Positions 285 through 16,456 of a DNA stretch of 43,640 nt are shown here, one piece after another. The number at the start of each line of letters is the position of its first letter. Positions within the stretch are counted from its first letter, which is position 1. The position numbers and the translations under genes are program-made. The DNA is from a virus. Taxonomy: Duplodnaviria; Heunggongvirae; Uroviricota; Caudoviricetes. The stretch covers positions 1 through 43,640 of IMG/VR virus record IMGVR_UViG_3300031760_000015; one strand, written 5' to 3'. The notes below the pieces were generated by a model. The model was given only the letters and a program-made list of their open reading frames with translations. It made no database searches and was not told the origin of the DNA.

Positions 285-316
285 GTAAATTACATCAAAC
301 GTATAGTCTAATTAAT
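285..316. repeat. Palindromic site S1
   Basis: GTAAATTACA-TCAAACGTATAG-TCTAATTAAT. Confidence 0.85.
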
Positions 317-327
317 AATCATTTAAC

Positions 328-356
328 TTGACGCCCTTCTATATATATGATATACT
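328..356 (+). promoter_or_regulatory. sigmaA-type promoter, representative of the ~40 near-consensus promoters in the array
   Basis: TTGACG-N17-TATACT, preceded by TTAAC; the same architecture follows most sites. Confidence 0.8.
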
Positions 357-381
357 ATATACAATAAAAGCAAAGGAGATT

Positions 382-696
382 ATGAACATGACACCTATCT
401 ACAATGCCGCTACTCTTCGCAAAGTTTCCTCCGATGCCCGTCTTGCCGAATATAATCGTATTAAAAACGATTTTGTTCCTACGGTATTATGTAAAATGAA
501 CGAAGCAAACTTTGCCGCAGCTAATGCCGGCTATCAAAGCGCAGCCGATAACTTCAATCTTCTGTGTATGGGACTTTTTTCAGAAGAATCTCAAAATTAT
601 TTGAAAATAGGTCTAAAATCAGAGTTAGAAGAACTTGGTTTTTCGACCGTAATTAAAATAGAAAATGGGATGTTAAAAGTAATGTGTACATGGTAA
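382..696 (+). CDS. Hypothetical protein (family ending in L..LGF...I/C.W)
   Basis: AAGGAG RBS before ATG 382 (ORF-track TTG start lies in the -35 box); terminator 697-716. Confidence 0.8.
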   Translation: MNMTPIYNAATLRKVSSDARLAEYNRIKNDFVPTVLCKMNEANFAAANAGYQSAADNFNLLCMGLFSEESQNYLKIGLKSELEELGFSTVIKIENGMLKVMCTW

Positions 697-730
697 ATTG
701 CGGGAAACCGCAATTTCATTTTAATATTAT

Positions 731-762
731 GTAAATTACATTAAACGTAAATTCTATTTTAC
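731..762. repeat. Palindromic site S2
   Basis: GTAAATTACA-TTAAACGTAAAT-TCTATTTTAC. Confidence 0.85.
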
Positions 763-974
763 TTTCATTTAACTTTCCCAATTTCATTTTTATTTTATTT
801 TCCCAAAACTAACATACTATTTACTTCTAAAATCCTATTTTACTATTGACAATTTCATTTTAATATGATATAATATAATGATAGAAAAAATCTCAATTTC
901 ATTTCCTAAAATAAACTATCTAATTAACAACCTTTTAACTTGACACATCCTATATCTTATGCTATAATAGACTT

Positions 975-1152
975 GTCGAAAGGGAGAAAGGAGCGTTGAT
1001 AGGATGCCGCCCTATTAGAGCAAGGGGCAACAGTCCACTTGGCGGTGGAAAACTGACCCCACCATTACATTTGAAAACCGTTCCCCATTGACCACGGGCA
1101 AGTCAATGATGCTGGAAGCCCAACCGCGCGGAGTAGCTAACCGCGCGGCTTT
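975..1152 (+). ncRNA. Candidate ~180-nt structured small RNA cassette
   Basis: Promoter TTGACA 940/TATAAT 963; several hairpins; terminator at 1124-1152; no ORF longer than 25 codons. Confidence 0.5.
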
Positions 1153-1163
1153 ATTATACTAAT

Positions 1164-1195
1164 GTAAATTAGACTATACGTTTATTCTAATACAC
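1164..1195. repeat. Palindromic site S3
   Basis: GTAAATTAGA-CTATACGTTTAT-TCTAATACAC. Confidence 0.9.
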
Positions 1196-1265
1196 AAAAA
1201 CTTAATTTGACTTTTAAATCAACTTATGTTATAATGTTTACAGAATTAAGAAAGGGGTTGTTCCT

Positions 1266-1454
1266 ATGTGGCGTGTCTCTTACTCTCTCTATGGGCTTTC
1301 TTATACTTCTGTTTCATATTCTTCTTTGCAAGAGTGCATTGATGAACTCCATCGGCGTTGGTGTGATTTTAATTTTGACGCTATGGATTGGTTCAAAATC
1401 GAAGAAAAATATGACGGACTTTGGCATCAGCGCGGCTTTTATAAGAATGAGTGA
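1266..1454 (+). CDS. Hypothetical protein
   Basis: Own promoter and RBS AAGGGG; stop inside terminator loop. Confidence 0.8.
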   Translation: MWRVSYSLYGLSYTSVSYSSLQECIDELHRRWCDFNFDAMDWFKIEEKYDGLWHQRGFYKNE

Positions 1455-1480
1455 AATATCTCATTCTTTTTAAATTCTAT

Positions 1481-1512
1481 GTAAATTAGAGTAAACGTAG
1501 AGTCTAATTTAC
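1481..1512. repeat. Palindromic site S4
   Basis: GTAAATTAGA-GTAAACGTAGAG-TCTAATTTAC. Confidence 0.95.
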
Positions 1513-1590
1513 TAACACTTAATCATATCATGCTTACTTCTTAATACTGGAAATGGTATAATAATACATCAAATGAAGGAGGTAACTACC

Positions 1591-1839
1591 ATGAGTAAGT
1601 TCCTGTATGTCGTCTATGATAACCGCGAGGCCGATGTTGTTGTCATCTGTAAAGATATGGACAGCGCCATCAAAAACGCAATCCAATACGCGCACCATGC
1701 CGATTATGAAGTGACTGACTTCGCTTATGGTGAAGGCTATACCACCATCGAATACAAGGTCTTTGTCCCGCGCTTGTATTCTGAAAGCACCACTGAAACC
1801 GGCACCATCGTCATTACTGAATCAGAACTTGAAAACTAA
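1591..1839 (+). CDS. Hypothetical protein, paralog of 3741-3965
   Basis: GGAGG RBS; aligned motifs YV..N.. / F.Y.E..T.I.Y / I.E..L. Confidence 0.8.
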   Translation: MSKFLYVVYDNREADVVVICKDMDSAIKNAIQYAHHADYEVTDFAYGEGYTTIEYKVFVPRLYSESTTETGTIVITESELEN

Positions 1840-1870
1840 TGGGCACAAGCCCATTTTTTATTACCTTAAT

Positions 1871-1902
1871 GTAAATTAGACTATACGGAACTTCTAATTT
1901 AC
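1871..1902. repeat. Palindromic site S5
   Basis: GTAAATTAGA-CTATACGGAACT-TCTAATTTAC. Confidence 0.95.
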
Positions 1903-1972
1903 TAACTCTTAACTTGACAATTTATAAGATTCGATATATAATATATACATAAAAGCAAGGAGGTAACAAACA

Positions 1973-2218
1973 ATGAAGATTTGGACTGATGGTTGCGACA
2001 CCTTTGAGACTGAGGACGAAGCCCGCGAGGATGCTTATGAAAACATTACATGGGATGACATTGAAGAACATTTTCAGGACAATGTCAACTTTCACGACTT
2101 CTTTACCAAAGTGCGCGAAAACTTGCCGAACTTTTTCGAACTCTTTGAAGATGAATGCTGTGAAGCCGAAAATAATTATTTTGATAACCACTATTGGGAG
2201 GAAGGAGAAGAAGAATAG
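1973..2218 (+). CDS. Very acidic small protein
   Basis: GGAGG RBS; D/E-rich 81 aa; terminator follows. Confidence 0.85.
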   Translation: MKIWTDGCDTFETEDEAREDAYENITWDDIEEHFQDNVNFHDFFTKVRENLPNFFELFEDECCEAENNYFDNHYWEEGEEE

Positions 2219-2246
2219 CGGCAACGCTATTCTTTTTTAATCATAT

Positions 2247-2278
2247 GTTAATTAAACTAACCGTATCGTCTAATTTAC
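2247..2278. repeat. Palindromic site S6
   Basis: GTTAATTAAA-CTAACCGTATCG-TCTAATTTAC. Confidence 0.9.
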
Positions 2279-2349
2279 TAATATTTAACTTGACTTCTCA
2301 TATATCATATGCTATAATGTATACATCAAATGAAAGAGAGGTACTCCCC

Positions 2350-2616
2350 ATGAACAAGACTTTCGACTCCATCGCCGCCGATACCGCTACCATCGCCATG
2401 AACATGATGACCATTGAAGAACTTCGCGCAGTAATCAACGCGGCCGCCGACAAGATTGACGAAAAGGCCGAGCGCCACCGCATCGCCATCGAGCAGGCTA
2501 TTGCGGACGCCATCGAAGATGGTTTCGACATCTGCTTCTGGGTTGAGGGCAGGGACGGCGATTGCTTCATCAACCACGAAGAAACCGACCGCATCACGCA
2601 CGTATCCGTAAATTAG
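2350..2616 (+). CDS. Hypothetical protein (GC-rich codons)
   Basis: GAGAGG RBS before ATG 2350. Confidence 0.8.
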   Translation: MNKTFDSIAADTATIAMNMMTIEELRAVINAAADKIDEKAERHRIAIEQAIADAIEDGFDICFWVEGRDGDCFINHEETDRITHVSVN

Positions 2617-2645
2617 TGGGCAACCACTAATTTTTTTAAGCAAGT

Positions 2646-2677
2646 GTAAATTAGAAGGCACGGACCTTCTAATTAAC
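2646..2677. repeat. Palindromic site S7
   Basis: GTAAATTAGA-AGGCACGGACCT-TCTAATTAAC. Confidence 0.9.
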
Positions 2678-2748
2678 AAACAAATAACTTGACTTTTTTC
2701 TCTATTAGGTGTATAATAAATATACAAAAACGAAAGGGGATAACTACT

Positions 2749-2958
2749 ATGGCAATCACTATCAAGCATACCTATTCCGCAAGCGTTGACATTGTTTTTA
2801 CCTCTGAGGACGGCTACTGCTTTCATCAGAAAGTAACCGATACCATGGACGGAATTGCGGAACATGTTTGCGACATGTTCATCGCGCACAAGTTCACCGC
2901 CGCGGATGTTTGCGACGTTAACACTGGCGAACTTCTCATGACCTTGGAGCGGACGTAA
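2749..2958 (+). CDS. Hypothetical protein
   Basis: AAAGGGG RBS before ATG 2749. Confidence 0.8.
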   Translation: MAITIKHTYSASVDIVFTSEDGYCFHQKVTDTMDGIAEHVCDMFIAHKFTAADVCDVNTGELLMTLERT

Positions 2959-2975
2959 GTCCGCTTTAATTTTAT

Positions 2976-3007
2976 GTAAATTAGACTAAACGTAAATTCT
3001 AATTCAT
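2976..3007. repeat. Palindromic site S8
   Basis: GTAAATTAGA-CTAAACGTAAAT-TCTAATTCAT. Confidence 0.9.
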
Positions 3008-3077
3008 TTAAATTTAACTTGACTTCTTCTCTCTAAAATGATATAATTAATACATCAAAAGCAAGGAGGAATAAACC

Positions 3078-3263
3078 ATGAACCTGCCGCTGTACGTCAT
3101 TGATTACATCGTGAACTCTACCAACACTGTTTCCTATCAGTATTTCTATACTACCCGCGCCGCACGTGATTTTCTCTGGATTAATCGTGACAAAATCCAC
3201 GACCCAATTATCACACTCTTCGGAAGCAATATGGAAATCAGTGAAAAAGACTTGCGGGATTAA
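3078..3263 (+). CDS. Hypothetical protein
   Basis: Promoter, GGAGG RBS, terminator. Confidence 0.8.
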   Translation: MNLPLYVIDYIVNSTNTVSYQYFYTTRAARDFLWINRDKIHDPIITLFGSNMEISEKDLRD

Positions 3264-3287
3264 TCCCGCATTTCTTTTTAAGCATAT

Positions 3288-3319
3288 GTAAATTAGAATA
3301 TCCGTATTATCTAATTTTC
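3288..3319. repeat. Palindromic site S9
   Basis: GTAAATTAGA-ATATCCGTATTA-TCTAATTTTC. Confidence 0.9.
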
Positions 3320-3388
3320 AAACTTTTAACTTGACATATACTGATTTATAGATTATAATATATACAGAAATTGAGAGGAGGCAACCCC

Positions 3389-3604
3389 ATGAAACAGATT
3401 AACAAAGTTCAGGCCCGTAAACTTTACAGTGAAAAGAAGCCCTTTATCATTGTGCCTGCGAATATGCGACCTGATTCACAATTCGCCGTTCACATGAAAC
3501 CCGGCTGGATGTGGCGCAATTTCAACAACTTTTACAATGAGTTTTGCTACTATAACTGTAACAAAGAAACAGGCCGCTATCCGCGGTTTTACGTGGAGGA
3601 TTAA
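3389..3604 (+). CDS. Hypothetical protein
   Basis: AGGAGG RBS before ATG 3389. Confidence 0.8.
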   Translation: MKQINKVQARKLYSEKKPFIIVPANMRPDSQFAVHMKPGWMWRNFNNFYNEFCYYNCNKETGRYPRFYVED

Positions 3605-3628
3605 TCCTCCACTTTTTATTATAGCTAT

Positions 3629-3660
3629 GTAAATTAGACTTTCCGTTTAGTCTAATTTAC
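3629..3660. repeat. Palindromic site S10
   Basis: GTAAATTAGA-CTTTCCGTTTAG-TCTAATTTAC. Confidence 0.95.
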
Positions 3661-3740
3661 TCACATTTAACTTTATTATGCTTACTTCTTAATATTCAAA
3701 ATGGTATAATATATCCATCAAATGAAGGGGGTATAAACCT

Positions 3741-3965
3741 ATGAAGGCTATTTACGTCATCACTGAAAACAATGAAGTCATCACCGCCCGCGACACCATG
3801 AACAACGCCGTTGCTGCCGCAATGAACCGGATTGCTATTTGCGGCTATCTGTGTGAAGGGTTCGAATATGACGAATCCTTGACACTCATTGACTACCGCG
3901 ATACCAGCGCGCACGAAACGCGCACGATGCTCATTCAGGAAACGACCTTGCATGAAGGGGTTTAA
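3741..3965 (+). CDS. Hypothetical protein, paralog of 1591-1839
   Basis: Shared atypical promoter and protein motifs. Confidence 0.8.
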   Translation: MKAIYVITENNEVITARDTMNNAVAAAMNRIAICGYLCEGFEYDESLTLIDYRDTSAHETRTMLIQETTLHEGV

Positions 3966-3985
3966 CCCCTTCTTTTTAATTCTAT

Positions 3986-4017
3986 GTAAATTAGATAATC
4001 CGTATCTTCTAATTCAC
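3986..4017. repeat. Palindromic site S11
   Basis: GTAAATTAGA-TAATCCGTATCT-TCTAATTCAC. Confidence 0.9.
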
Positions 4018-4086
4018 ATACAATTAACTTGACAAAATATATCAATTCATGCTATAATAAATCATCAAATGAAGGGGGTTAATACC

Positions 4087-4305
4087 ATGAAGAAATACAG
4101 CATCACTACAAAGTTTGTTACCATGTACACCAAAGAAGAAGAAGTCAAAGTCGAATATACAAATGACTTTGAGGCCGCTTTAGGCGCGTACATCATTTAC
4201 ATTGAAAACCCTGAAGTTGTATTCTGCACTTTGGCACTTCTTAACGAAAATGACACAATTCGAGAAATTGTCGCCGCGTTTAATTCGCAGCATATAAGGG
4301 GTTAA
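4087..4305 (+). CDS. Hypothetical protein
   Basis: AAGGGGG RBS before ATG 4087. Confidence 0.8.
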   Translation: MKKYSITTKFVTMYTKEEEVKVEYTNDFEAALGAYIIYIENPEVVFCTLALLNENDTIREIVAAFNSQHIRG

Positions 4306-4327
4306 TCCCCTTATATGTTGACTATAT

Positions 4328-4359
4328 GTAAATTAGAGTATCCGGACACTCTAATATAC
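4328..4359. repeat. Palindromic site S12
   Basis: GTAAATTAGA-GTATCCGGACAC-TCTAATATAC. Confidence 0.9.
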
Positions 4360-4459
4360 AAAAACTTAATATAAAAAAACTATTGACAAATCAATTTTTT
4401 GTGGTATAATAAAATAAAAACGGTTCAACAACAACGACAACATGAGAGGAGATTTTACA

Positions 4460-4753
4460 ATGTTTTTTCAGATTCAGATTCGTCACGTTTTAGTCTATGG
4501 TTACATCTATGACAACGGCATGTTTGAGATTAACATGTGGGACTTTGACGCCGATGATTATTGGTTCAGGGACGGACGTAAAAAGACTGTTAAGGCCGCG
4601 TGGCGCATGATTTACCACATGGCCCGCGACATGGACAGGATTAACCACATCTTTGATGAAGATGGGGTTGAGGAATTGGAAGAGGCAATGGAACTGTTCT
4701 TTGACGAAGATTTAGAAATGTTAAATCTTGATGAAGATTGGGATTGGGAATAG
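4460..4753 (+). CDS. Acidic-tailed hypothetical protein
   Basis: GAGGAG RBS before ATG 4460; D/E-rich C-terminus. Confidence 0.8.
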   Translation: MFFQIQIRHVLVYGYIYDNGMFEINMWDFDADDYWFRDGRKKTVKAAWRMIYHMARDMDRINHIFDEDGVEELEEAMELFFDEDLEMLNLDEDWDWE

Positions 4754-4782
4754 GCCAACGGCCTATTCTTTTTTAAACTAAT

Positions 4783-4814
4783 GTAAATTAGACTATCCGG
4801 CTACTCTAATTTAC
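4783..4814. repeat. Palindromic site S13
   Basis: GTAAATTAGA-CTATCCGGCTAC-TCTAATTTAC. Confidence 0.95.
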
Positions 4815-5075
4815 GAACATTTAACTTGACAAATCTTGTAAAATTTGGTATAATTAACAATGGTGGAATATTATGAGAAAGGAGGCGATTGTTATGACTA
4901 TGTTAAGGAGTGATTGAGTTTTGGTTAAGACTATATTAAAATTAAGTAAAGTGGCCCGTGTATCGGGTCTGTTAGTGCTGCCTAATTTTAGCTAAACTTA
5001 ACCCATAATTAACTTGACTTACAAGCTGGAAGCTGGTATAATATATATAGAAAAAGAGAGGAGCTGGAGCTGGAT

Positions 5076-5261
5076 ATGAAGAAACTTACTACTGAACAAA
5101 CGGAAAAGCTGAAAGCTGCTATTCGCGCACTATATCAGCTGGAAGATGAGCTGTCAAGTGATTTTGAAGGTAATCGTCAAGATGCCTGGGATGTTCATTC
5201 TATCTTAAAAGTAGCAGACCATCTTACCGTATTGTATGAAAAATGGAAGGAGAATAAGTAA
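5076..5261 (+). CDS. Hypothetical protein
   Basis: Own promoter at 5014; GGAG RBS. Confidence 0.75.
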   Translation: MKKLTTEQTEKLKAAIRALYQLEDELSSDFEGNRQDAWDVHSILKVADHLTVLYEKWKENK

Positions 5262-5262
5262 T

Positions 5263-5457
5263 ATGTTCAAGCCTAATGCAGAACACATCGAAGAACTGAT
5301 GCGTGCAAAAGAGATTTGCGATTCTCTGATTGATGAAATCCATCAAGATGATGATTACCTTTTTCTAATGAATAGAGCAAGACTTAGTAGCGCCGCCGCA
5401 GCCATTGAGAATGTTCTTAATAGTTTTACTAATACCATTGAAGCACTCACACCATGA
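5263..5457 (+). CDS. Hypothetical protein
   Basis: AAGGAG RBS; coupled to the previous gene; terminator at the stop. Confidence 0.75.
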   Translation: MFKPNAEHIEELMRAKEICDSLIDEIHQDDDYLFLMNRARLSSAAAAIENVLNSFTNTIEALTP

Positions 5458-5472
5458 GTGCTTTACTTTTAT

Positions 5473-5504
5473 GTTAATTAAACCGCACGTACAATTTATA
5501 TAAC
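5473..5504. repeat. Palindromic site S14
   Basis: GTTAATTAAA-CCGCACGTACAA-TTTATATAAC. Confidence 0.8.
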
Positions 5505-5574
5505 AATCTTTTAACTTGACATTTTATTCTAAATGATATATAATATATACATCAAGTGAAGGGAGATACAAACT

Positions 5575-5946
5575 ATGCGCGAAGTTACTATGTATTATGC
5601 CTATGATGACAAGGAATTTGACAACTATGAAGCGTGCTTGGTTTATGAAAATAAAGGTTATGGACTAATGCGTAGCATAGAAAAGAAGTATTCTTTCTAT
5701 GATAAGAATATGAAGGAAATGATTCCTCCATATGAATCATCTAATGTTGAAGATTGGTTAACTTGGTTAGATGATGCTTATTCTTACTGCACTTACATTA
5801 GGAAGATGGGCAGTCTGACTGACGATGAAGCAGAAATCATTCGGGAGAATATTGGTGTTTGTATTTTCGAGGAAGATTTCAATTGTGCGGTTGGCCTATT
5901 TAGATATGATACTCGCACAATGGAATGGGTTAAAGTGGATGAATAA
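5575..5946 (+). CDS. Hypothetical protein
   Basis: Promoter, GGGAG RBS, terminator. Confidence 0.8.
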   Translation: MREVTMYYAYDDKEFDNYEACLVYENKGYGLMRSIEKKYSFYDKNMKEMIPPYESSNVEDWLTWLDDAYSYCTYIRKMGSLTDDEAEIIRENIGVCIFEEDFNCAVGLFRYDTRTMEWVKVDE

Positions 5947-5968
5947 TCCACTTTAATTTTAATTATAT

Positions 5969-6000
5969 GTAAATTAAATAATCCGTATATCCTAATTTAC
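5969..6000. repeat. Palindromic site S15
   Basis: GTAAATTAAA-TAATCCGTATAT-CCTAATTTAC. Confidence 0.9.
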
Positions 6001-6069
6001 AAACAATTAACTTGACTTCTTAAATTATATATGCTATACTGTATACATCAAATGAAGGGAGCATAGAAC

Positions 6070-6507
6070 ATGAAGATAGTTTGGGACATGGACGGCACGA
6101 TTGCCGATTTGTATGGTGTGGAGAATTGGCTTACTTACTTGCGTGCTTTTGACCCCACGCCTTATCTTGCGGCGAAACCTCTTGTTAATATGTCAAGATT
6201 GGCATATTGGCTAAACAGATTACAAGAAAAAGGGCACAAACTTGTTATTGTAAGTTGGTTAAGTAAAGAATCAAATCCAGATTATGACAAATTGGTTACT
6301 GATGCCAAAATTAAATGGCTCAACCAACATTTGCCAAGCGTCAAATGGGATGAAATTCATATTGTAGCCTATGGCCGCAATAAATGGGAAATAGCAAAAG
6401 ATGGAATTTTGTTTGATGATGATATGAGAAATCACGAAGCATGGAAAAATGGAAATAGCTATTTCCCCAATGATATATTCGATGTTCTTAAAAAGATGGC
6501 GGCTTGA
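6070..6507 (+). CDS. HAD-superfamily 5'(3')-deoxyribonucleotidase-like phosphatase
   Basis: N-terminal DMDGT (DxDxT) motif and C-terminal LFDDD motif. Confidence 0.8.
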   Translation: MKIVWDMDGTIADLYGVENWLTYLRAFDPTPYLAAKPLVNMSRLAYWLNRLQEKGHKLVIVSWLSKESNPDYDKLVTDAKIKWLNQHLPSVKWDEIHIVAYGRNKWEIAKDGILFDDDMRNHEAWKNGNSYFPNDIFDVLKKMAA

Positions 6508-6530
6508 CCGCCATCTTTTATAAATTATAT

Positions 6531-6562
6531 GTTAATTAAAACGCACGGATAATGTATTTAAC
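6531..6562. repeat. Palindromic site S16
   Basis: GTTAATTAAA-ACGCACGGATAA-TGTATTTAAC. Confidence 0.8.
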
Positions 6563-6630
6563 AAAAAATTTACTTGACTTTTTATAGAAATTATGTTATA
6601 ATAATTATAGAAAACGAAAGGAGAAAGCAA

Positions 6631-6699
6631 ATGTTTATTTGGTTAGTTTTTGCTATCGACATTCTGATTATTTCTGCAATTCTCGTAACAATCATTTAA
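6631..6699 (+). CDS. 22-aa hydrophobic membrane peptide (MFIWLVFAIDILIISAILVTII)
   Basis: Own promoter (6574) and AAGGAG RBS; below ORF-track cutoff. Confidence 0.6.
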   Translation: MFIWLVFAIDILIISAILVTII

Positions 6700-6776
6700 C
6701 TTGACTTTCTCGCCTCAACATGTTATAATGTATCTACAAAGTGAAGGAAAACACTAAACCAGAGAGGAGTTAATCT

Positions 6777-7238
6777 ATGGCTAACATGAGTAAGGCAGCC
6801 CTCGAAACCGCTATCCGCAATGACATTCTTTCCGCTATGACTGCTTTCCTGTCTGAACACTTTGAAGCCGATGTAATGGACGTTAGCGCAAGCGAACTGG
6901 CTATGCCTGTTGTCGATGCCGAAGGCAACGAAAAGTTCGCACTGATTAAGGTATCTATTCCGCGTGGTTCTCGCAATGGCGATGGCGGTTATGATGCCTA
7001 TGACGGTTACGCAGCCCATGATGAATGGGAACTTGTCAAGGCAGACAAAGCAGACAAAGAAGCAAAGCGCAAGGAAAAGGCAGAACGCGCAGAGAAGGAA
7101 AAAGAGCGCAAGCGCGCCGCAAAGAAAACTATTAAGAAACTGAATACCGAAGGGCTTCAGGCGATGATTCACGCGCCTGACCCCGAAGAAGAAAAAGATG
7201 ACGATAACCAATTCCTGCCCCAAGAAGTGACGGTTTAA
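6777..7238 (+). CDS. Hypothetical protein with K/A/E-rich tail (family with 8201-8515 and 12459-12797)
   Basis: Promoter, conserved leader, GAGGAG RBS. Confidence 0.85.
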   Translation: MANMSKAALETAIRNDILSAMTAFLSEHFEADVMDVSASELAMPVVDAEGNEKFALIKVSIPRGSRNGDGGYDAYDGYAAHDEWELVKADKADKEAKRKEKAERAEKEKERKRAAKKTIKKLNTEGLQAMIHAPDPEEEKDDDNQFLPQEVTV

Positions 7239-7261
7239 CCGTCACTTTATTTTATATCTAT

Positions 7262-7710: not shown

Positions 7711-7713
7711 AAA

Positions 7714-9455: not shown

Positions 9456-9527
9456 ATAGTTTTAACTTGACTTCTCAAACATAGTATGCTATAATAAATA
9501 CATCAAATGAAGGGAGATTAAATCAAT

Positions 9528-9821
9528 ATGAATAATGTATACTCTAAAGTTTTTAGTTGCCTTCCCGAACTTAGCGAAATTGAGCTTGAAGCTCTTGCAG
9601 AAGCATGTCAAGAAAGAGCAGAAGGGAAAAGAAAAGCACGCCGTGAAGTATTGCGGCAAGAATTAATGGAGAATCTTCAAAAAGTCATTGGGGATATTCT
9701 TCATAATGGTTTTAATCTCGCTATTAAAAATACTGGATGCAATCCTGAATACGATGATTATGTTGAAGTTTTTTTTGAACCCGGAGATATTTATTCAATA
9801 GTAATGGTAGATAATAAGTAG
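9528..9821 (+). CDS. Hypothetical protein
   Basis: Promoter, GGGAG RBS, terminator. Confidence 0.8.
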   Translation: MNNVYSKVFSCLPELSEIELEALAEACQERAEGKRKARREVLRQELMENLQKVIGDILHNGFNLAIKNTGCNPEYDDYVEVFFEPGDIYSIVMVDNK

Positions 9822-9848
9822 CGGCAACGCTACTTTTTTTAATTTCAA

Positions 9849-9880
9849 GTAAATTAAATTGCACGTACACTCTAATTCAT
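9849..9880. repeat. Palindromic site S21
   Basis: GTAAATTAAA-TTGCACGTACAC-TCTAATTCAT. Confidence 0.9.
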
Positions 9881-9981
9881 CAACACTTAACATAAAAAAG
9901 TATTGACAAATAGATATAGAGGGTGTATAATATATCCAGAAAGTGAAGGAAAACACTTGACAAACCAGAAAGGGATTGAAC

Positions 9982-11022
9982 ATGCAGTTTAAGAAAGAGC
10001 GTAATTTCATCGTGGCGTATGACGGCGTTATCAAGTTGGGCGCGTGGGACATTTCCAACGGTTCTTTCATTGGCAAGAGCGGCAAGCCTGTTAAGAATGT
10101 TCCTTCTTGCTTTACCTATCGTAATTTGCCTTCATGGCGTAGTGGCGCGAATGACCTTGCCTATGCTATTTATTGGTATCGGACAAACCTTTCCGATAAT
10201 TATACGGAAGTTATGGGCGCACACTTTGAACAGCTTTTGAGTTTGGGGCTTTTCCCGAACAGCACCAACAGTCTTTACGATAAACCCAATCTTAACAAAA
10301 AGATTGTGGAGTATCTCAAAGAAGAAAATCAGAGTTATTATGATTCTATTAAGGTAGCGCGTTACCTTGCCTTAATCCAGCATGAACAGTATATTAACAC
10401 TTTGCCTGATTGGGCAAAAGAAGTTTTTAGTAGCCTTTTGAGATCTAATATTCCCATTGATTATATTAAGACTGCGTTAAATCGTGTTATCCATGAACAT
10501 GTTGACGCTTTTATTAAAGATAGCTATTACATTTCTGGAAAAATCTTTGAAATGTTGAAAGATTATTATAATATTTCCATGAAGTTGTTTAACAAAGTGG
10601 AAATAGAAAAAAATTTCCTGACTAAATACGCAATTTTGAAATATCTTGCGGAAGAATACAAGAATAAGCACTATAATGAAGAATTGGCAAAGAATAACGA
10701 TAAATCATGGCTTTACTACGAAAACGAAACCTTTATTGTAAAGCCGATTTTGACCAAAGAGGATTTCCATATAGAGGGCGAAGCGCAGCGAAATTGCGTT
10801 GAAAGAATGTATATGGAAAAAGTATACAAAGGCGAAACTCACGTTGTAACTATTCGCCGCAAGTCTGACCCTAATAAATCTTATATAACTTGTGAAGTTA
10901 GCAACGATGGTAGGATTTGGCAGTATTTGGCACGTTGTAACGAAACGCCCAAAGAACAGGACGCAAGGAACTTCAAAGTAGAATATACACAGCATCTTAA
11001 CAGAAACTACAAAAAGGATTAA
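9982..11022 (+). CDS. PcfJ-like domain protein
   Basis: C-terminal EGEAQRNCVE..Y.....IRRK....YITCEV...G.I.QY....N..P pattern typical of PcfJ. Confidence 0.75.
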   Translation: MQFKKERNFIVAYDGVIKLGAWDISNGSFIGKSGKPVKNVPSCFTYRNLPSWRSGANDLAYAIYWYRTNLSDNYTEVMGAHFEQLLSLGLFPNSTNSLYDKPNLNKKIVEYLKEENQSYYDSIKVARYLALIQHEQYINTLPDWAKEVFSSLLRSNIPIDYIKTALNRVIHEHVDAFIKDSYYISGKIFEMLKDYYNISMKLFNKVEIEKNFLTKYAILKYLAEEYKNKHYNEELAKNNDKSWLYYENETFIVKPILTKEDFHIEGEAQRNCVERMYMEKVYKGETHVVTIRRKSDPNKSYITCEVSNDGRIWQYLARCNETPKEQDARNFKVEYTQHLNRNYKKD

Positions 11023-11054
11023 CCCGAAAGGGTTAATCTCTTTTTTAAGGCTAT

Positions 11055-11086
11055 GTAAATTAAACAGTCCGGACACTCTAATTTAC
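11055..11086. repeat. Palindromic site S22
   Basis: GTAAATTAAA-CAGTCCGGACAC-TCTAATTTAC. Confidence 0.92.
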
Positions 11087-11172
11087 GCACATTTAACTTG
11101 CGTTTCTTCCCTGACTGTGCTATAATATATCCAGAGTTGAAGGAAAACAACACAAACCAGAAAGGCTTTATT

Positions 11173-12186
11173 ATGGCGAATAAGACCAAGCGTTATCTGA
11201 TGTTGGATTGTGAAACTGCTACCTTGCCATTTGCGGATGAAATCGCGGGTGACAATCCCGAGCGCAAAAAGCGTATAGCCATTGCCAAGCCCTTGATTTA
11301 TGATATTGGTTGGACTATTACCAATCGCAAGGGCGACATTCTGGAAAGCAAGCAATTTTTGATTGCGGAAACTTTCGCCGTTCCTGCTGTATTCAATACT
11401 GCGTATTACGCAGAAAAGCGCCCCATTTATCTTGAAATGCTCAAGAAAAATGAAACCAGCATAAAGCCGTGGAATGAAGTTATGGATGTGTTAATTGCCG
11501 ATATGGGCATTGTCGATGGTGTCGGCGCGTTTAATTCAATGTTTGATTTTAAGAAAGCTATTCCTTTTACTGAACTTTACATTCAGGAATTGTATAGCCC
11601 CACTTATTATCAATGGGAACAGTTACAGCGCAGAAGCGCGGCGCGCATTGCCGATGGAGAACGCAATCAACCGAACCCCGATTTTGAAGCCGATATTTTC
11701 CGCTTCCGTGGAAAAAAATATTCACTTTTCGATATGTGGGGACTTGCCACGACTTACCTTTTGAATAATACTACTTATAAGAATAAGTGTTTGGAACATT
11801 CAATGCTTACTAATTCAGGAACATTCTTTAAAACAAGTGCAGAAAGCACTTTCCGTTATCTCTGTGATAAATATGATTTTATGGAAAGCCATACCGCGCT
11901 TGATGATGCTATCATAGAAAGTTTCATACTTTCCAAGGTTGCTCAAAAGCATAGTATAACAATGGGAATTAAATTCTTCCCTTTCCGTGATTTGGGCGCT
12001 ACTGATGAATTTTGTATGAGAAGGAAAAAAGCAAACAAGCGCGAATGTGAAACTGTGTATTGTGCTATGGCAGATTACATAAACGCAAAATTAGATGAAG
12101 CGGATGAATTATCTAATTATGCGGTAGGATTAGTCCGCAGGATGCGCAGACTTGCCGAGTATGCGGGATTTGAATGTAATTATTAA
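11173..12186 (+). CDS. DEDDh (DnaQ-like) 3'-5' exonuclease
   Basis: ExoI LDCETA, ExoII FNSMFD, ExoIII HTALDD. Confidence 0.85.
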   Translation: MANKTKRYLMLDCETATLPFADEIAGDNPERKKRIAIAKPLIYDIGWTITNRKGDILESKQFLIAETFAVPAVFNTAYYAEKRPIYLEMLKKNETSIKPWNEVMDVLIADMGIVDGVGAFNSMFDFKKAIPFTELYIQELYSPTYYQWEQLQRRSAARIADGERNQPNPDFEADIFRFRGKKYSLFDMWGLATTYLLNNTTYKNKCLEHSMLTNSGTFFKTSAESTFRYLCDKYDFMESHTALDDAIIESFILSKVAQKHSITMGIKFFPFRDLGATDEFCMRRKKANKRECETVYCAMADYINAKLDEADELSNYAVGLVRRMRRLAEYAGFECNY

Positions 12187-12223
12187 GTTAAGAGCCACGA
12201 GGCTCTTTTCTTATTAAGCAAAT

Positions 12224-12255
12224 GTAAATTAAAGTGTACGTACACTCTAATTTAC
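12224..12255. repeat. Palindromic site S23
   Basis: GTAAATTAAA-GTGTACGTACAC-TCTAATTTAC (spacer is itself a perfect palindrome). Confidence 0.95.
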
Positions 12256-12301
12256 TTTCTTTTAACTTGACATTTGTGGGATTTTCTGATATACTATATT
12301 T

Positions 12302-12366
12302 GTTGAAAGGGAGAGGGCAACACTCCTGCTCCATAAGAACCAGTCAAGAGCCAACTCCCTTTTAAC
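12302..12366 (+). ncRNA. Candidate ~65-nt small RNA
   Basis: Promoter TTGACA 12267/TATACT 12290; 12-bp closing stem GTTGAAAGGGAG/CTCCCTTTTAAC; no ORF. Confidence 0.55.
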
Positions 12367-12458
12367 AAACTCTTAACTTGACATTTAGCACATAACGTGC
12401 TATAATGAATACATCAAGTGAAGGAAAACACTTAAAAACCAGAAAGGATTTCACTACT

Positions 12459-12797
12459 ATGGCGAAGATTTCTAAGGCTGTCGTTGATTCCAACATCCGT
12501 ACCGCTATCTTCAACACCCTGCACATTGCCGACATTGAAGGTATCCACAAGATTAATGATCGTCAGTATGGTTGCCTTGTGACCGATTCCAACGGCGTTG
12601 AGCGTTACGCGCGTATCGGCGTAATCGTTGCCGAAGAACGCGAGGACATGACCGCCGCCGAACTCATGGCCGCCGAAATTGCGGACTATGAGGACAAGCA
12701 GGCGAAGAAGGCCGCGAAGGCCGCCGAGCGTGCCGAAAAGGCCGCAAAGGACAAGGCCAAGCGTGAAGCCGCGAAAAAGGAAAAAGAAGGGGAGTAA
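12459..12797 (+). CDS. Hypothetical protein, K/A-rich tail family
   Basis: AAAGGA RBS before ATG 12459. Confidence 0.85.
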   Translation: MAKISKAVVDSNIRTAIFNTLHIADIEGIHKINDRQYGCLVTDSNGVERYARIGVIVAEEREDMTAAELMAAEIADYEDKQAKKAAKAAERAEKAAKDKAKREAAKKEKEGE

Positions 12798-12819
12798 CCC
12801 CTTCTTTTTTTAAGTTAAT

Positions 12820-12851
12820 GTAAATTAAAGTGTACGGACATTCTAATTTAC
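12820..12851. repeat. Palindromic site S24
   Basis: GTAAATTAAA-GTGTACGGACAT-TCTAATTTAC. Confidence 0.92.
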
Positions 12852-12941
12852 CAACTCTTAATTTGACAAATAGCCAAGCCCATGCTATAATATATACATC
12901 AAGTGAGGGAAAACACTTAAAAACCAGAGAGGACAATATTT

Positions 12942-13109
12942 ATGTATCAGATTCATTTTCTTCTTCTCAATGGTGAACATGCTATTATTGCAAATTGGGT
13001 AAACTCGAACAGGTTTCCTACTAAAGAAGATGCAATGAGATTTGCGCAGAATACTGCAAAAAGTTTCAATGGAAGTTGCTACAATATCTTTTATCGAGTT
13101 GTAGGATAA
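12942..13109 (+). CDS. 55-aa hypothetical protein (MYQIHFLLLNGEHA...)
   Basis: Promoter 12863, conserved leader, GAGAGG RBS; below ORF-track cutoff. Confidence 0.7.
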   Translation: MYQIHFLLLNGEHAIIANWVNSNRFPTKEDAMRFAQNTAKSFNGSCYNIFYRVVG

Positions 13110-13205
13110 CAAAACCTTAACTTGACAAACTCCACTTCATCTGATATAATATAATCAATCAAGTGAAGGAAAACACTAACAAACCCAAGAGAGAAAGGAA
13201 TCAAT

Positions 13206-13616
13206 ATGAATATGAACTCTAACATCAAGTGCGGCACTTCCATCAATGGCGGCGTGGTTCTGACTGATATGCCCATCAAGGCTCTGGTTGCCCTGCGTGA
13301 TGCGGTAGACGATGCTATCCGCAATTCCCGTAAGGATGATTCTGACCGCCTTCTGACCGACATTATTTCCGCGATTGATGCGGCAAATGATGAGGGCTAT
13401 ATGGTTAATCTGAATGGCAAGCCCATTTGTCCTGACCTTCTGACCGTAGATTATGATGAAGATAATGACTATTGGGATGACGATGAAGACGAGGACGAAG
13501 ATGATGATGATTGGGATGACGATTGGGATGATGATGACGAGGATGAGGACAATGAGGATAGCCCATGTGATGGTTGCGAAGATGATTGTTTCTATTGTCC
13601 CCATTGTGATTGTTAA
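13206..13616 (+). CDS. Extremely acidic protein with C-terminal Cys cluster
   Basis: Poly-D/E tract followed by CDGCEDDCFYCPHCDC. Confidence 0.85.
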   Translation: MNMNSNIKCGTSINGGVVLTDMPIKALVALRDAVDDAIRNSRKDDSDRLLTDIISAIDAANDEGYMVNLNGKPICPDLLTVDYDEDNDYWDDDEDEDEDDDDWDDDWDDDDEDEDNEDSPCDGCEDDCFYCPHCDC

Positions 13617-13651
13617 GAAAAGGGCGTAAGCCCTTTTCTTTTTAAGCATAT

Positions 13652-13683
13652 GTAAATTAGATAGCACGTTCAATTTAATTTAC
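13652..13683. repeat. Palindromic site S25
   Basis: GTAAATTAGA-TAGCACGTTCAA-TTTAATTTAC. Confidence 0.92.
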
Positions 13684-13754
13684 TTACAATTAACTTGACT
13701 TCCATTCCGTTCTATGCTATAATATATTCAAGAAAACGAAAGGGGATTCAAATT

Positions 13755-13907
13755 ATGAATTATCTTGATGCCTTGAATTATGTCTTGTCAATGTCTGGAG
13801 AATTGGAAGAGTTAGGCATGACTAAAGAATGTCATACTCAACTTTGCCTTCTTAGAGACAAAGTTTATAAAGAAATGCAGCAAGAGAAAAGAAAGGAGCA
13901 TAACTAA
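13755..13907 (+). CDS. Hypothetical protein
   Basis: AAAGGGG RBS before ATG 13755. Confidence 0.7.
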   Translation: MNYLDALNYVLSMSGELEELGMTKECHTQLCLLRDKVYKEMQQEKRKEHN

Positions 13908-13909
13908 TT

Positions 13910-14098
13910 ATGGATTACATTTGCCCTCATTGCGACACTGAACTTGAACTGACCGAAGTCGAAACCTATCAGGATTATAGTGGTTCGCGCATACTAACCG
14001 AGTATAATACTTGGTATTGCCCTACTTGCGGCCGCACGTATCAGAATGAGACTAACTATGTCTATGTTGATGAAACTGAATTGAAGGAGATTAAGTAA
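13910..14098 (+). CDS. Zinc-ribbon protein
   Basis: CPHC...CPTC. Confidence 0.8.
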   Translation: MDYICPHCDTELELTEVETYQDYSGSRILTEYNTWYCPTCGRTYQNETNYVYVDETELKEIK

Positions 14099-14129
14099 GG
14101 CGCGAAAGCGCCTTTTATTTTATACATAT

Positions 14130-14161
14130 GTAAATTATAGTGTACGTACAATTTAATTCAT
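14130..14161. repeat. Palindromic site S26
   Basis: GTAAATTATA-GTGTACGTACAA-TTTAATTCAT. Confidence 0.85.
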
Positions 14162-14233
14162 ATACTTTTAACTTGACTTTTCACGCAGAATATATTATAA
14201 TAAATACATCAAATGAAAGGGGAATAAAACATT

Positions 14234-14608
14234 ATGTTGAAGATGAATTATTCAGATCTCAAAGAAAAGAACTATCGCCAGCTTATCAAAGAGTGCGAGC
14301 GTCGCGGAATTGATACTTCTGATTATAGAGGTTGTATGCCTCCAAATGATCTTATTGGAAAGATTATCGCGCATGATGCCTACTATGAAGGGCGCGATGA
14401 TGCTCTTAATGGGCGTCCCTCCAAGGTAGAAATGAACCGCAAAAATGAGCGCACTCGCTATCGTTTTCGGGAATGTGATGGAACTGAGCATTATGTTATG
14501 CTTACGCGTGAGCAAGAGCGTTTTATGCGTTGGAATTACGATAATGCTATTGATTATGATAATATGGATATAGATGTTATTGAAGACATTAATTGGGAAA
14601 CTCCATAA
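14234..14608 (+). CDS. Hypothetical protein (N-terminus resembles a Rho-N/SAP-like helical motif)
   Basis: LKEKNYRQLIKECERRGI pattern; promoter, RBS and terminator. Confidence 0.75.
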   Translation: MLKMNYSDLKEKNYRQLIKECERRGIDTSDYRGCMPPNDLIGKIIAHDAYYEGRDDALNGRPSKVEMNRKNERTRYRFRECDGTEHYVMLTREQERFMRWNYDNAIDYDNMDIDVIEDINWETP

Positions 14609-14630
14609 AGAGTTTCCTTTTTAATTTCAA

Positions 14631-14662
14631 GTTAATTAAACTGTCCGTGCAGTCTAATTCAT
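14631..14662. repeat. Palindromic site S27
   Basis: GTTAATTAAA-CTGTCCGTGCAG-TCTAATTCAT. Confidence 0.85.
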
Positions 14663-14734
14663 ATACATTTAACTTGACTTTTCTTCCTATCTTGTGTATA
14701 CTATATACATCAAATGAAAGAGAGGACAGTTCAC

Positions 14735-15451
14735 ATGGTTGATAAGCGTATTCATTACTATTTGGTGTTGGATGTAGAGACAGCTAACGGTTTGGATGAC
14801 CCATTGGTTTATGATATTGGTGGCGCGATAACCGACAAACAAGGTAGGATTTACGAAACATTTTCTTTCGTAATTCGAGACATTTTCATCTATGAGCGTT
14901 TTCTCATGGAAACGGCATACTATGCTAACAAGGTTCCCGATTATATTCAAGACTTGGAAAATGATAATCGTATTCTCATTGATTTCCACAATGCGCGAAA
15001 ATATATTCTTGCGCTAATGGAAAAATACAACATAACAGATGTTGCCGCTTATAACGCACATTTTGACCGCAACGCATTGAATACAACGCAGCGTTGGTTA
15101 ACCAAATCTAAATATAGATACTTTTTCCCCTATGGCACAAACTTCATCTGTATTTGGAATATGGCTTGCCAAACCCTATGCCAACGCAAAACATATAAAG
15201 AATTTTGTGAAAAGAATAATTTCACAAGCAATCGCAAGGGAGAACCAAACGCAAAGAATTACAGCACGAGCGCAGAAACAGTTTACAGATACTTAATACT
15301 AAACGCAAATTATGAGGAAGAACATAAAGGTTTAGAAGATGTTAAGATTGAAACATATATTATGAAAAGATGCTTTTCCTCAAAAAAGAAAATGCCATAT
15401 GGTAAAGGAATTAAAAGAAATTGTTGGATGTTGGTTAAGAGAACGGTTTAA
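14735..15451 (+). CDS. Second DEDDh 3'-5' exonuclease
   Basis: LDVETA, YNAHFD, HKGLED motifs; homologous to 11173-12186. Confidence 0.85.
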   Translation: MVDKRIHYYLVLDVETANGLDDPLVYDIGGAITDKQGRIYETFSFVIRDIFIYERFLMETAYYANKVPDYIQDLENDNRILIDFHNARKYILALMEKYNITDVAAYNAHFDRNALNTTQRWLTKSKYRYFFPYGTNFICIWNMACQTLCQRKTYKEFCEKNNFTSNRKGEPNAKNYSTSAETVYRYLILNANYEEEHKGLEDVKIETYIMKRCFSSKKKMPYGKGIKRNCWMLVKRTV

Positions 15452-15472
15452 CCGTTCTTTTTTTGATTTTAT

Positions 15473-15504
15473 GTTAAATAGATTGTACGTACCATTTAAT
15501 TTAC
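15473..15504. repeat. Palindromic site S28 (terminator on both sides; left end of inversion 2)
   Basis: GTTAAATAGA-TTGTACGTACCA-TTTAATTTAC; no adjacent promoter. Confidence 0.88.
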
Positions 15505-15537
15505 ACATAATTAAAAAAAATAGCGGTTTTGCCGCTA

Positions 15538-15714
15538 TTACATATCCTCCAATTCATGAATTTTAGTTATGGTTCCGTAATAACTGCCATCATCATAATT
15601 AAACCAAAATTGAAAATCTTCGGTATCAATTATCCAAAATCCATCTTCTGCTTTATAGGTGTGATGAATATTCAAGCGGTCAAGAAGATACAGAGCCATT
15701 GCAAAATTAGACAT
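15538..15714 (-). CDS. 58-aa hypothetical protein in inversion 2 (MSNFAMALYLLDRL...)
   Basis: Minus-strand AAAGGA RBS; terminator 15513-15540 faces S28; below ORF-track cutoff. Confidence 0.7.
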   Translation of the reverse strand: MSNFAMALYLLDRLNIHHTYKAEDGFWIIDTEDFQFWFNYDDGSYYGTITKIHELEDM

Positions 15715-15732
15715 TTGATTTCGTTCCTTTCA

Positions 15733-16005
15733 TTATTTAATATTAAGCATTTCAAAAACTTTTTTTATTCGTCGCTTATTTAGTATATCTTCATAGGCAT
15801 TTTGTTTTTCAATCAATTCAATTATTTTTTCATCTCCCTGTTCATCGCATAAAGCCGCGATAGTTAAACGAATATAAGGAAATTCTTCATCACCAGTATT
15901 AAAAATCAATTCACGATTATTAAAATTGGCAGAGATTAATTCTTCATTAAGCCAATCTTTTACAAATTTTTCACGAACTTTATTTTGCTTTTCCATCAAT
16001 GTCAT
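15733..16005 (-). CDS. Hypothetical protein in inversion 2
   Basis: Minus-strand promoter next to S29, ATCAAATGAAGGGAG leader. Confidence 0.8.
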   Translation of the reverse strand: MTLMEKQNKVREKFVKDWLNEELISANFNNRELIFNTGDEEFPYIRLTIAALCDEQGDEKIIELIEKQNAYEDILNKRRIKKVFEMLNIK

Positions 16006-16075
16006 ATGCTTGCGCTCCCTTCATTTGATACATCAATTATAGCAGATAGTATGTAATATGTCAAGTTAAAGTATA

Positions 16076-16107
16076 GTAAAATAGACTGTACGCGCAATTT
16101 AATTAAC
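16076..16107. repeat. Palindromic site S29 (inside inversion 2; canonical context on the minus strand)
   Basis: GTAAAATAGA-CTGTACGCGCAA-TTTAATTAAC; minus-strand -35 box 11 bp away. Confidence 0.88.
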
Positions 16108-16138
16108 ATAAAATAAAAATGGCACTTTAAGTGCCATA

Positions 16139-16354
16139 TTATATTACCTCCACAATCTTAACGCTATCTTCATCATAACCGATAATATCATAAAGTTCTT
16201 CCGCAGAGAATGAAACTTTACAATTATTACAGGTACAAAAAACTATCTTGCTATAACAATTATAGTTATAGTTCCAGCCAAGTGCAGAATCCGCGACAAT
16301 CTCAAAACTTCCAGCAGTCCCGCATTTAGGACACTTAATCGTCTTGTAAGGCAT
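16139..16354 (-). CDS. Zinc-ribbon protein in inversion 2
   Basis: CPKC...CNNC; minus-strand promoter next to S30; terminator 16120-16137. Confidence 0.8.
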   Translation of the reverse strand: MPYKTIKCPKCGTAGSFEIVADSALGWNYNYNCYSKIVFCTCNNCKVSFSAEELYDIIGYDEDSVKIVEVI

Positions 16355-16424
16355 ATTGTAAATCTCCCTTCATTTGATGATATAAGTATAGCAGAAAATG
16401 GGAAAGAAGTCAAGTTAAACCTAC

Positions 16425-16456
16425 GTAAATTAGACTAAACGGCCATTCTAATTTAC
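16425..16456. repeat. Palindromic site S30 (right end of inversion 2 and last site of the array)
   Basis: GTAAATTAGA-CTAAACGGCCAT-TCTAATTTAC; minus-strand promoter to the left, plus-strand promoter further right. Confidence 0.95.

Follow-up and report, generated by a model that had tools for sequence, protein, structure and literature searches.

A 32-bp Palindrome Phased with Promoters in a Rearranging Gene-Cassette Array of a Gut Phage Contig

The Palindrome and Its Array

What is a 32-bp palindrome doing thirty times over among the small genes at one end of a phage contig? The question is raised by the first 43.6 kb (43,640 nucleotides, called the window in what follows) of a 107,640-bp IMG/VR contig (record IMGVR_UViG_3300031760_000015, here G000), in which copies of the element GTAAATTAGA-N5-CG-N5-TCTAATTTAC stand between one group of small genes and the next. 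A sequence-only reading of the window had taken these copies for the recombination points of an integron-like array, through which the phage would gain, lose, reorder and flip early gene cassettes. The analysis presented here leads us to consider it fairly probable that the palindrome is the shared operator of an early-gene regulon, and that the junctions carrying it serve as passive substrates for homologous shuffling.

Searching with the pattern gave 23 matches at three mismatches or fewer, and the same search on 100 dinucleotide-preserving shuffles gave none. A tolerance of six mismatches returned exactly 30 sites between 285 and 16456, all of them ungapped, confirming the number, positions and exact geometry that had been listed from the sequence. 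The 30 sites were used to make a symmetrised position weight matrix, which scored 29 of them at 28–44 bits and the weak site at 8620 at 17 bits; the best non-site position in the 107,640-bp contig reached 16 bits (at 25993) and the next 3.5 bits, a separation that is partly circular since the matrix is derived from the very sites scored. The central CG is invariant (60/60 half-sites). No site was found at 16457–107640, the whole remainder of G000, so the earlier observation that the copies stop at 16456 now extends to the rest of the contig.

An exact-pattern scan of IMG/VR identified the same palindrome in six further contigs, and the arrays of five of these were examined. These five related rumen/gut phage contigs (G001 to G005) and G000 are the six genomes compared throughout. 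Scanning the genome and its relatives for the site, as the sequence-only reading had proposed, gave 30 sites in G000 and 32–43 in each of the five relatives, where they are packed into 17–21 kb. G001 (184 kb, with direct terminal repeats) and G003 (181 kb) are both rated complete; G000 begins inside the array, which is therefore truncated on its left.

Contigs from bovine gut metagenomes are near-identical to the window DNA. The closest cultured relative was a Clostridioides phage, recognised by a helicase match at 27% identity. Near-identity searches of 50,697 phage records with the array and with 20–43.6 kb gave zero matches, and a literal motif search of the literature returned unrelated matches only. 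Taken with the cargo described below, the bovine gut matches and the distant helicase match suggest that the region is probably the early, host-takeover-like part of an uncultured ~180-kb phage of gut Firmicutes.

A scan of positions 1–17000 returned 43 intrinsic-terminator-like hairpins, compared with 12 ± 3.3 in shuffles, and 33 promoters with at least 11/12 consensus matches. The usual order is a hairpin, a T-run, ~8 nt, the palindrome, 11 nt, TTGACW, 17 nt, TATAAT, GGAGG and a small gene, and nearly every cassette owns a consensus promoter and a terminator. The 16 kb is divided into small-gene and RNA modules much as had been described. The accompanying claim, that the sites lie between a terminator and a near-consensus promoter, holds for most of them and fails for the orphans at 8149 and 15473, which have a promoter on neither side. 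In the window, the promoter lies to the right of the palindrome with 11 nt between palindrome and -35 box (the gap) at 20 sites and with a gap of 22 or 23 nt at two, and to the left with a gap of 11 nt at two; weaker or extended -10 promoters are found at three sites (1481, 3629 and 11055). The array and its sites are as follows.

1..16456, unstranded: early-gene cassette array, 30 palindromes and ~30 cassettes of 1–4 small genes/RNAs; runs off the left end of the contig
285..316: S1, right promoter, gap 11
731..762: S2, no -35 box at gap 11; followed by palindrome-less promoters at 846 and 940
1164..1195: S3, right promoter, gap 11
1481..1512: S4, extended -10 promoter, -10 box 44 nt downstream
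1871..1902: S5, right promoter, gap 11
2247..2278: S6, right promoter, gap 11
2646..2677: S7, right promoter, gap 11
2976..3007: S8, right promoter, gap 11
3288..3319: S9, right promoter, gap 11; drives the conserved 71-aa gene
3629..3660: S10, extended -10 promoter, -10 box 44 nt downstream
3986..4017: S11, right promoter, gap 11, 18-nt spacer
4328..4359: S12, right promoter, gap 23, 16-nt spacer; -10 box still in phase
4783..4814: S13, right promoter, gap 11
5473..5504: S14, right promoter, gap 11
5969..6000: S15, right promoter, gap 11
6531..6562: S16, right promoter, gap 11
7262..7293: S17, right promoter, gap 11
8149..8180: S18, orphan amid convergent terminators, promoter on neither side
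8181..8619, minus strand: cassette with gene 8201–8515, in terminator-gene-promoter order between S18 and S19
8620..8651: S19, weak (17 bits), common to divergent promoters with gap 22 on both sides
9424..9455: S20, right promoter, gap 11
9849..9880: S21, right promoter, gap 22
11055..11086: S22, weak -35 box (TTGCGT) at gap 11 with TGcTATAAT
12224..12255: S23, top score, nearly perfect 32-bp palindrome; right promoter, gap 11
12820..12851: S24, right promoter, gap 11
13652..13683: S25, right promoter, gap 11
14130..14161: S26, right promoter, gap 11
14631..14662: S27, right promoter, gap 11
15473..15504: S28, orphan amid convergent terminators
15505..16424, minus strand: two cassettes with genes 15538–15714, 15733–16005 and 16139–16354
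16076..16107: S29, left (minus-strand) promoter, gap 11
16425..16456: S30, left promoter, gap 11; right end of the array

Phasing of the Palindrome with Promoters

Across 180 promoters in the six genomes, the gap between palindrome and -35 box is 11 nt in 148, 22 nt in 25, 23 nt in five and 33 nt in one, and the sole exception is a doubtful promoter. Promoters of the gap-23 class carry a 16-nt spacer and so keep the position of the -10 box, with the result that the distance from palindrome to -10 box is 34/35, 45/46 or 56 nt and the centre of the site falls at about -62.5, -73.5 or -84.5 from the promoter start. The steps between these gaps are whole helical turns, meaning that the site faces the polymerase from one constant side. 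The gap-22 class is present in all six genomes with diverse spacer sequences, and therefore does not stem from one recent duplication. Ten sites in the six genomes symmetrically serve two divergent promoters (for example 8620, at 22/22). The palindrome itself has a polarity, as position 3 of the arm is T in 55% of promoter-distal arms versus 27% of proximal arms (Fisher p = 6e-6), and this asymmetry reverses where the promoter stands on the left.

Promoters that do without the palindrome were also compared. Elsewhere in G000 (18665–104284) there are 26 consensus TTGACT-17-TATAAT promoters, no poorer than those of the array, with no palindrome, most of them with AT (TAT or AATAT) just before the -35 box in place of TTAAC; they make up a second class of promoter for the same host sigma factor. 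Inside the array, nine internal promoters (-35 at 940, 846, 5014, 6701, 7501, 8837, 8954, 12378 and 13122) have, in place of the full palindrome, no more than a proximal-arm remnant and TTAAC, as in the following example.

940..968, plus strand: internal palindrome-less promoter, (T)TAAC-N6-TTAAC kept before the -35 box

Since the internal array promoters hold a remnant and the 26 others hold nothing of the site, the site marks one promoter class. Its helical locking to the promoter, and a polarity that follows the promoter, argue that transcription control is its primary role; a site used for recombination alone would require neither strict helical phasing nor a polarity towards the promoter.

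One way to account for the phasing dispenses with any extra factor. The AT-rich element covers roughly -47 to -78 at a fixed spacing to the -35 box and could be a very long UP-like element touched by the C-terminal domains of the RNA polymerase alpha subunit, and it is in keeping with this that the internal promoters keep just the proximal-arm remnant and TTAAC. However, strict two-fold symmetry to ~100 bp upstream, an invariant central CG and conserved copies without a promoter are not features of known UP elements, and we give this explanation only a slight chance.

Symmetry and Conservation of the Element

The symmetry of the site does not end with the palindrome. A TTAA is found at +7 to +10 from either end (T at.64–1.0, T at.90–1.0, A at.84–.95 and A at.99–1.0), kept equally on promoter sides and on terminator (non-promoter) sides, and the full element is 52 bp: TTAA-N6-GTAAATTAGA-N5-CG-N5-TCTAATTTAC-N6-TTAA. 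We propose that the 32-bp palindrome would be the core of this two-fold symmetric 52-bp site, bound by a dimeric or higher-order DNA-binding protein.

Arms of ten bases that are able to pair, and a few nearly perfect 32-bp copies such as the one at 12224, could also mean that the palindrome works as a structure, either a DNA cruciform or an RNA hairpin, in the role of a second terminator or processing site. Within-site complementarity of the two N5 segments was 2.26 pairs versus 2.21 ± 0.06 expected from other sites of the same genome (z = 0.8), and there were zero compensatory changes between halves over the 213 sites, which largely refutes a structural role. This lack of covariation between left and right points to two half-sites on duplex DNA as opposed to a hairpin or cruciform. 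Additionally, the site comes after the intrinsic terminator and before the next start, so it is mostly untranscribed, and it has no Rfam match. We regard a structural function as very improbable indeed.

The consensus of the element varies from lineage to lineage. The centre is ACGT in 31/32 G001 sites, mostly CCGG in G003 and G005, and mixed in G000, and the distal arm reads GTTAA in G001 and G005. A distant relative (L028), found via a homologue of a 71-aa cargo protein, has (G)TTAA-N8-ACGT-N8-TTAAC-N11 before its -35 box; the arms differ, and the distance from CG to -35 box is 25 nt compared with 26 in the main family.

A Proposed Factor and the Sign of Regulation

If the palindrome is an operator, its factor would act on the adjacent near-consensus primary-sigma promoter from the phased upstream position, and the site would tag ~30 early host-takeover promoters (32–43 in the relatives) as one regulon. 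Our guess is a factor encoded by the phage that makes contact with RNA polymerase from the upstream side. A precedent exists in phi29, where protein p4 bound upstream at the strong A2c promoter contacts the polymerase and represses by blocking promoter clearance (PMC6524683). The p4 sites at A2c and A3 resemble the palindrome in lying upstream at a helically phased distance from the -35 box, the polymerase contact being a prediction in our case; phi29 differs in having few sites, and no p4 relative was sought here. At promoters as strong as those of the array, upstream contact may hold the polymerase back and turn the early genes off, as p4 does at A2c, the alternative being activation. Shut-off seems the better suggestion of the two because the promoters are already near consensus and an upstream contact can repress a strong promoter.

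It is possible that the site is instead read by a host transcription factor or nucleoid protein, which would let the phage couple early expression to the condition of its host. Whatever acts at time zero has to be present in the cell beforehand, and no phage DNA-binding candidate is evident in the array, both of which fit a host protein. Against this, a search of 185,579 species genomes with the degenerate pattern gave only chance-level single matches, besides two phage fragments that were probably mis-binned, and the centre consensus differs between related phages, which fits co-evolution with a phage factor, or different hosts. With the pattern absent from species genomes beyond chance and the consensus specific to lineages, we lean towards a phage-encoded factor and consider a host reader unlikely. 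The two fragments are L032, a 2.2-kb contig in an Acetobacter metagenome-assembled genome (MAG) with six sites of the palindrome family, and L035, in an Eggerthellaceae MAG, with one strong site; both probably come from related phages.

As for the identity of a phage-encoded binder, the 71-aa basic protein P0001 (see Cargo of the Array) is a weak candidate, and an 82-aa HTH_3 open frame (G000:107505–107615) and a 254-aa helix-turn-helix (HTH) open frame (G000:87962–88051) are candidates only. Two further types of binder were examined and rejected. A weak PF00216 match at 21811–21918, which could have indicated an HU/TF1-like protein, proved to be a 68-aa acidic helical open reading frame without beta-arms, and a ParB/KorB-like binder, prompted by the ACGT/CCGG centre, was dropped as G000–G003 contain no ParB_N domain.

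Cassette Rearrangement and Crossover Positions

Cassette families were compared between the six genomes by protein and DNA, which showed that whole cassettes are gained, lost, moved or flipped from one relative to another and that most rearrangement junctions fall in the regulatory segments between cassettes. G002 is collinear with the window throughout, save for absent cassettes, and G004 has one cassette (14234) relocated. In G001, cassette 2749 has moved and 5575 has moved and been inverted, so that it now lies beside 8201, and the small-cassette half of G005 is reshuffled. Cassettes on the minus strand are built in the order site, terminator, gene, promoter, site, with an orphan at the convergent end and a shared site at the divergent end, a layout matching the prediction of exchange between two palindromes.

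To map crossovers, we used parent/recombinant/parent triplets among the closest genomes, the "parents" being the genomes with the old neighbours, and scored informative positions; using the N5 segments as parental markers over all genome pairs was dropped, being confounded by divergence. Nine clean triplets were obtained. In five of them the best interval for the crossover is in the left arm or N5, in three it is right of the centre (up to the promoter) and in one it includes the centre. The sequence-only reading thus fared well in part: order and orientation are not fixed between relatives, and the gain, loss, reordering and flipping of cassettes that it proposed are seen among them, whereas the exchange it placed at the central CG is disfavoured by these intervals.

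Additional joints come from a related strain in sequencing run X4. A 7-kb contig of this strain has 14183–14695 deleted, and because the upstream palindrome and the downstream promoter spacer are both retained, the joint must lie within the 15 nt around the -35 box that the two promoters have in common. Cassettes 1164–1480 and 9424–9848 are also absent from this strain, with joints at or left of the left arm. Gene 13755–13907 is missing from several strains with no site involved, and the ends of high-identity blocks between G002 and G004 fall from -35 to +49 around sites and also from +110 to +350 inside cassettes. Junction evidence was taken from long Logan contigs of run X4 only; Logan joints in the source sample (X1), which have 20–30-nt sides at repeats, are unreliable and were not used for circles or inversions.

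These rearrangements could be the work of a dedicated site-specific recombinase, with the palindromes as crossover sites at whose central CG a serine-type exchange would remove, add or invert cassettes. Such an enzyme would account for the cassette-level rearrangements that separate relatives, as well as for the orphan site at the convergent junction and the single shared site at the divergent junction of minus-strand cassettes. The search for a serine or tyrosine recombinase that the sequence-only reading had suggested came back empty, with no Resolvase (PF00239) candidate and no Phage_integrase (PF00589) match at E <= 0.1 in phage genomes G000–G003, two of which are complete; such an enzyme might still be supplied by the host. 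Furthermore, some crossover intervals lie outside the palindrome, one joint falls in the promoter after the -35 box and some gene-level indels, such as 13748–13907, are away from any site. With the centre included in just one triplet, exchange at the centre is disfavoured, and we judge a dedicated recombinase improbable. A variation on this idea makes the palindromes operators and, at the same time, substrates of a recombinase unrecognisable by sequence, a "cassette exchanger" that would trade self-expressing early anti-host genes at set positions. Such a system would be analogous to an integron, though with a novel enzyme and with sites that are symmetric and double-stranded, and we see it as a long shot.

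The operator reading would leave the shuffling to general homologous recombination. Each junction offers ~100 bp of near-identical terminator, operator and promoter, and the operator is its own inverted repeat. Recombination between junctions would then delete, insert, move or flip self-expressing cassettes. It is the near-identity of the junctions together with the self-inverted operator that makes shuffling of whole cassettes by this route possible.

Several observations weigh against an operator as the full explanation. Dyad symmetry, conserved outer arms, variable inner spacers and an invariant, self-complementary CG are the anatomy of a serine-recombinase site. Several crossover intervals are inside the palindrome (five of nine in the left arm or N5), and placing the crossover at the centre by force costs just 0–4 informative positions in the nine triplets. 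The orphan sites (8149, 15473 and the first array site of G002, G003 and G004) are conserved to the same degree as promoter-linked sites, which a purely promoter-bound role leaves unexplained. The 11-nt and 22-nt classes are two promoter subtypes, and shared descent could explain part of the phasing. Lastly, the cargo proteins have no recognisable DNA-binding domain and no binder was identified among them. The orphans may be maintained through co-operation of bound factors along the array, or to block read-through; alternatively, they may hint at a function other than at promoters, and for that reason the palindromes retain a small chance of being recombination sites.

Comparison with Known Systems

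The array is best described as a cassette array like those of promoter-early stem-loops (PeSLs) or host takeover, with the addition of a long, phased palindrome that is probably an operator. T4-type phages carry ~50 PeSLs per genome, terminator-promoter motifs at which indels begin and end and from which mini-circles form (Arbiol et al. 2010, PMC2839356; Comeau et al. 2014, PMC4122927), and the insertions, deletions and replacements that they bound have been attributed to homologous recombination (PMC2839356, PMC4122927). Both systems have dozens of composites of a terminator and a strong host-type promoter beside small orphan genes in plastic regions, and in both the indels between relatives are bounded by the motif. 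They differ in that PeSLs are described without a separate conserved palindromic protein site and have a stem-loop whose position is variable within or around the promoter. PeSL phages also infect Gram-negative hosts, and mini-circles have been demonstrated for PeSLs.

Host-takeover-type blocks are similar in that, as summarised, they span 12–16 kb and consist of numerous short operons of small early genes, most of them uncharacterised, in which host-type promoters and ribosome-binding sites are strong. The summary of such a block describes no shared palindrome phased upstream of its promoters, and a Pfam search detected no protein similarity to it.

Serine-recombinase sites such as res site I, hix/gix and att share the dyad symmetry, conserved outer arms and central dinucleotide of the palindrome, but here no recombinase gene was found in G000–G003 and the best crossover interval excludes the centre in eight of the nine triplets. 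The likeness to integrons is limited to the arraying of cassettes. Integron cassettes are promoterless and read from one common promoter, whereas the cassettes here carry their own promoter and terminator; unlike attC, the palindrome has no single-strand folding signature (no covariation in 213 sites), and no IntI-type tyrosine recombinase was found in G000–G003. The integron-like label consequently fails every defining feature tested, there being no IntI-type gene, no paired halves and no dependence of cassettes on an outside promoter.

Cluster A mycobacteriophages have stoperators, 13-bp asymmetric sites in transcribed DNA at which a temperate phage's immunity repressor binds and elongation is blocked. 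They resemble the palindromes in that a single protein site recurs ~30 times among a group of transcription units. The sites described here, in contrast, are symmetric, phased with promoters and located in untranscribed gaps after terminators, and neither an integrase nor an immunity repressor was seen (the Phage_integrase domain is absent from G000–G003).

If one factor does read 30–43 phased operators, it would be a master switch for the whole early (host-takeover/anti-defence) programme. The clade concerned is that of widespread, uncultured ~180-kb phages of the cattle gut, and identifying the factor would add a new way of controlling early genes. As an example from beyond the T4 group, the array illustrates how regulatory junctions present in many copies turn an early region into a shuffling deck of small self-expressing genes, something that could help in the search for anti-host proteins and in the design of portable expression cassettes.

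Cargo of the Array

In total, 35 small genes were called in the array via a ribosome-binding site. Most products are acidic (pI 4–5) and without a Pfam family, the exceptions being a PcfJ-like protein (9976–11022), an NT5C-like nucleotidase (6070–6507) and two zinc-ribbon proteins. A tRNA-Lys(UUU) at 8744–8818 lies in an early cassette behind promoter 8674, followed by the palindrome-less promoters 8837 and 8954, and it was the only match in an Rfam search. The cargo is therefore heterogeneous and mostly of an unrecognised kind, as had been observed before. Genes downstream of the array include an RNA ligase, PnuC, an AAA/HD protein and a Thg1-like protein. The most conserved cargo gene is the following.

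3389..3604, plus strand: P0001, 71-aa basic protein (pI 9.6), the most conserved cargo of the array

P0001 is 80–94% identical across all six genomes and has 32 metagenome clusters at >=55% identity. Its AlphaFold2 model is confident (pLDDT 95.7), with a beta-alpha-beta-beta-alpha-beta order of elements, and the protein matched no Pfam family and no PDB fold.

Cassette 763–1163 has no open reading frame >31 aa and has perfect promoters with -35 at 846 and 940. A GC-rich RNA of ~180 nt at 975–1160 begins with GUCGAAAGGGAG and has a terminator at its end, with a fold z-score of -2.4, and the DNA of the cassette is 86–93% conserved in G001 and G004. The cassette probably encodes a small promoter-driven RNA. 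Many cassette transcripts share a leader, ACATCAARTGAAGGRAAACAC...CCAGARAGGA, between the -10 box and the ribosome-binding site (for example at 12895–12940 and 13150–13205).

Borders of the Array

The right border at 16600–16702 holds four copies of AGCTGGAA together with the 18-bp palindrome TTGTCAAATATTTGACAA, and this region precedes a helicase-like gene (16777–18018). Repeats of the AGCTGGAA type are present in relatives L010 and L028 too, and the region may be a different operator or origin-like. The left border, which can be seen in the relatives, has an orphan palindrome at 4750 in G002 and 22487 in G003 (oriented pieces), identical in both, with a conserved AACATAGTAGTTAGTCACCACTAAC element before it and an extra proximal half-site after it. 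At the left border of G004, two palindromes lie 36 bp apart (7240/7308, oriented piece).

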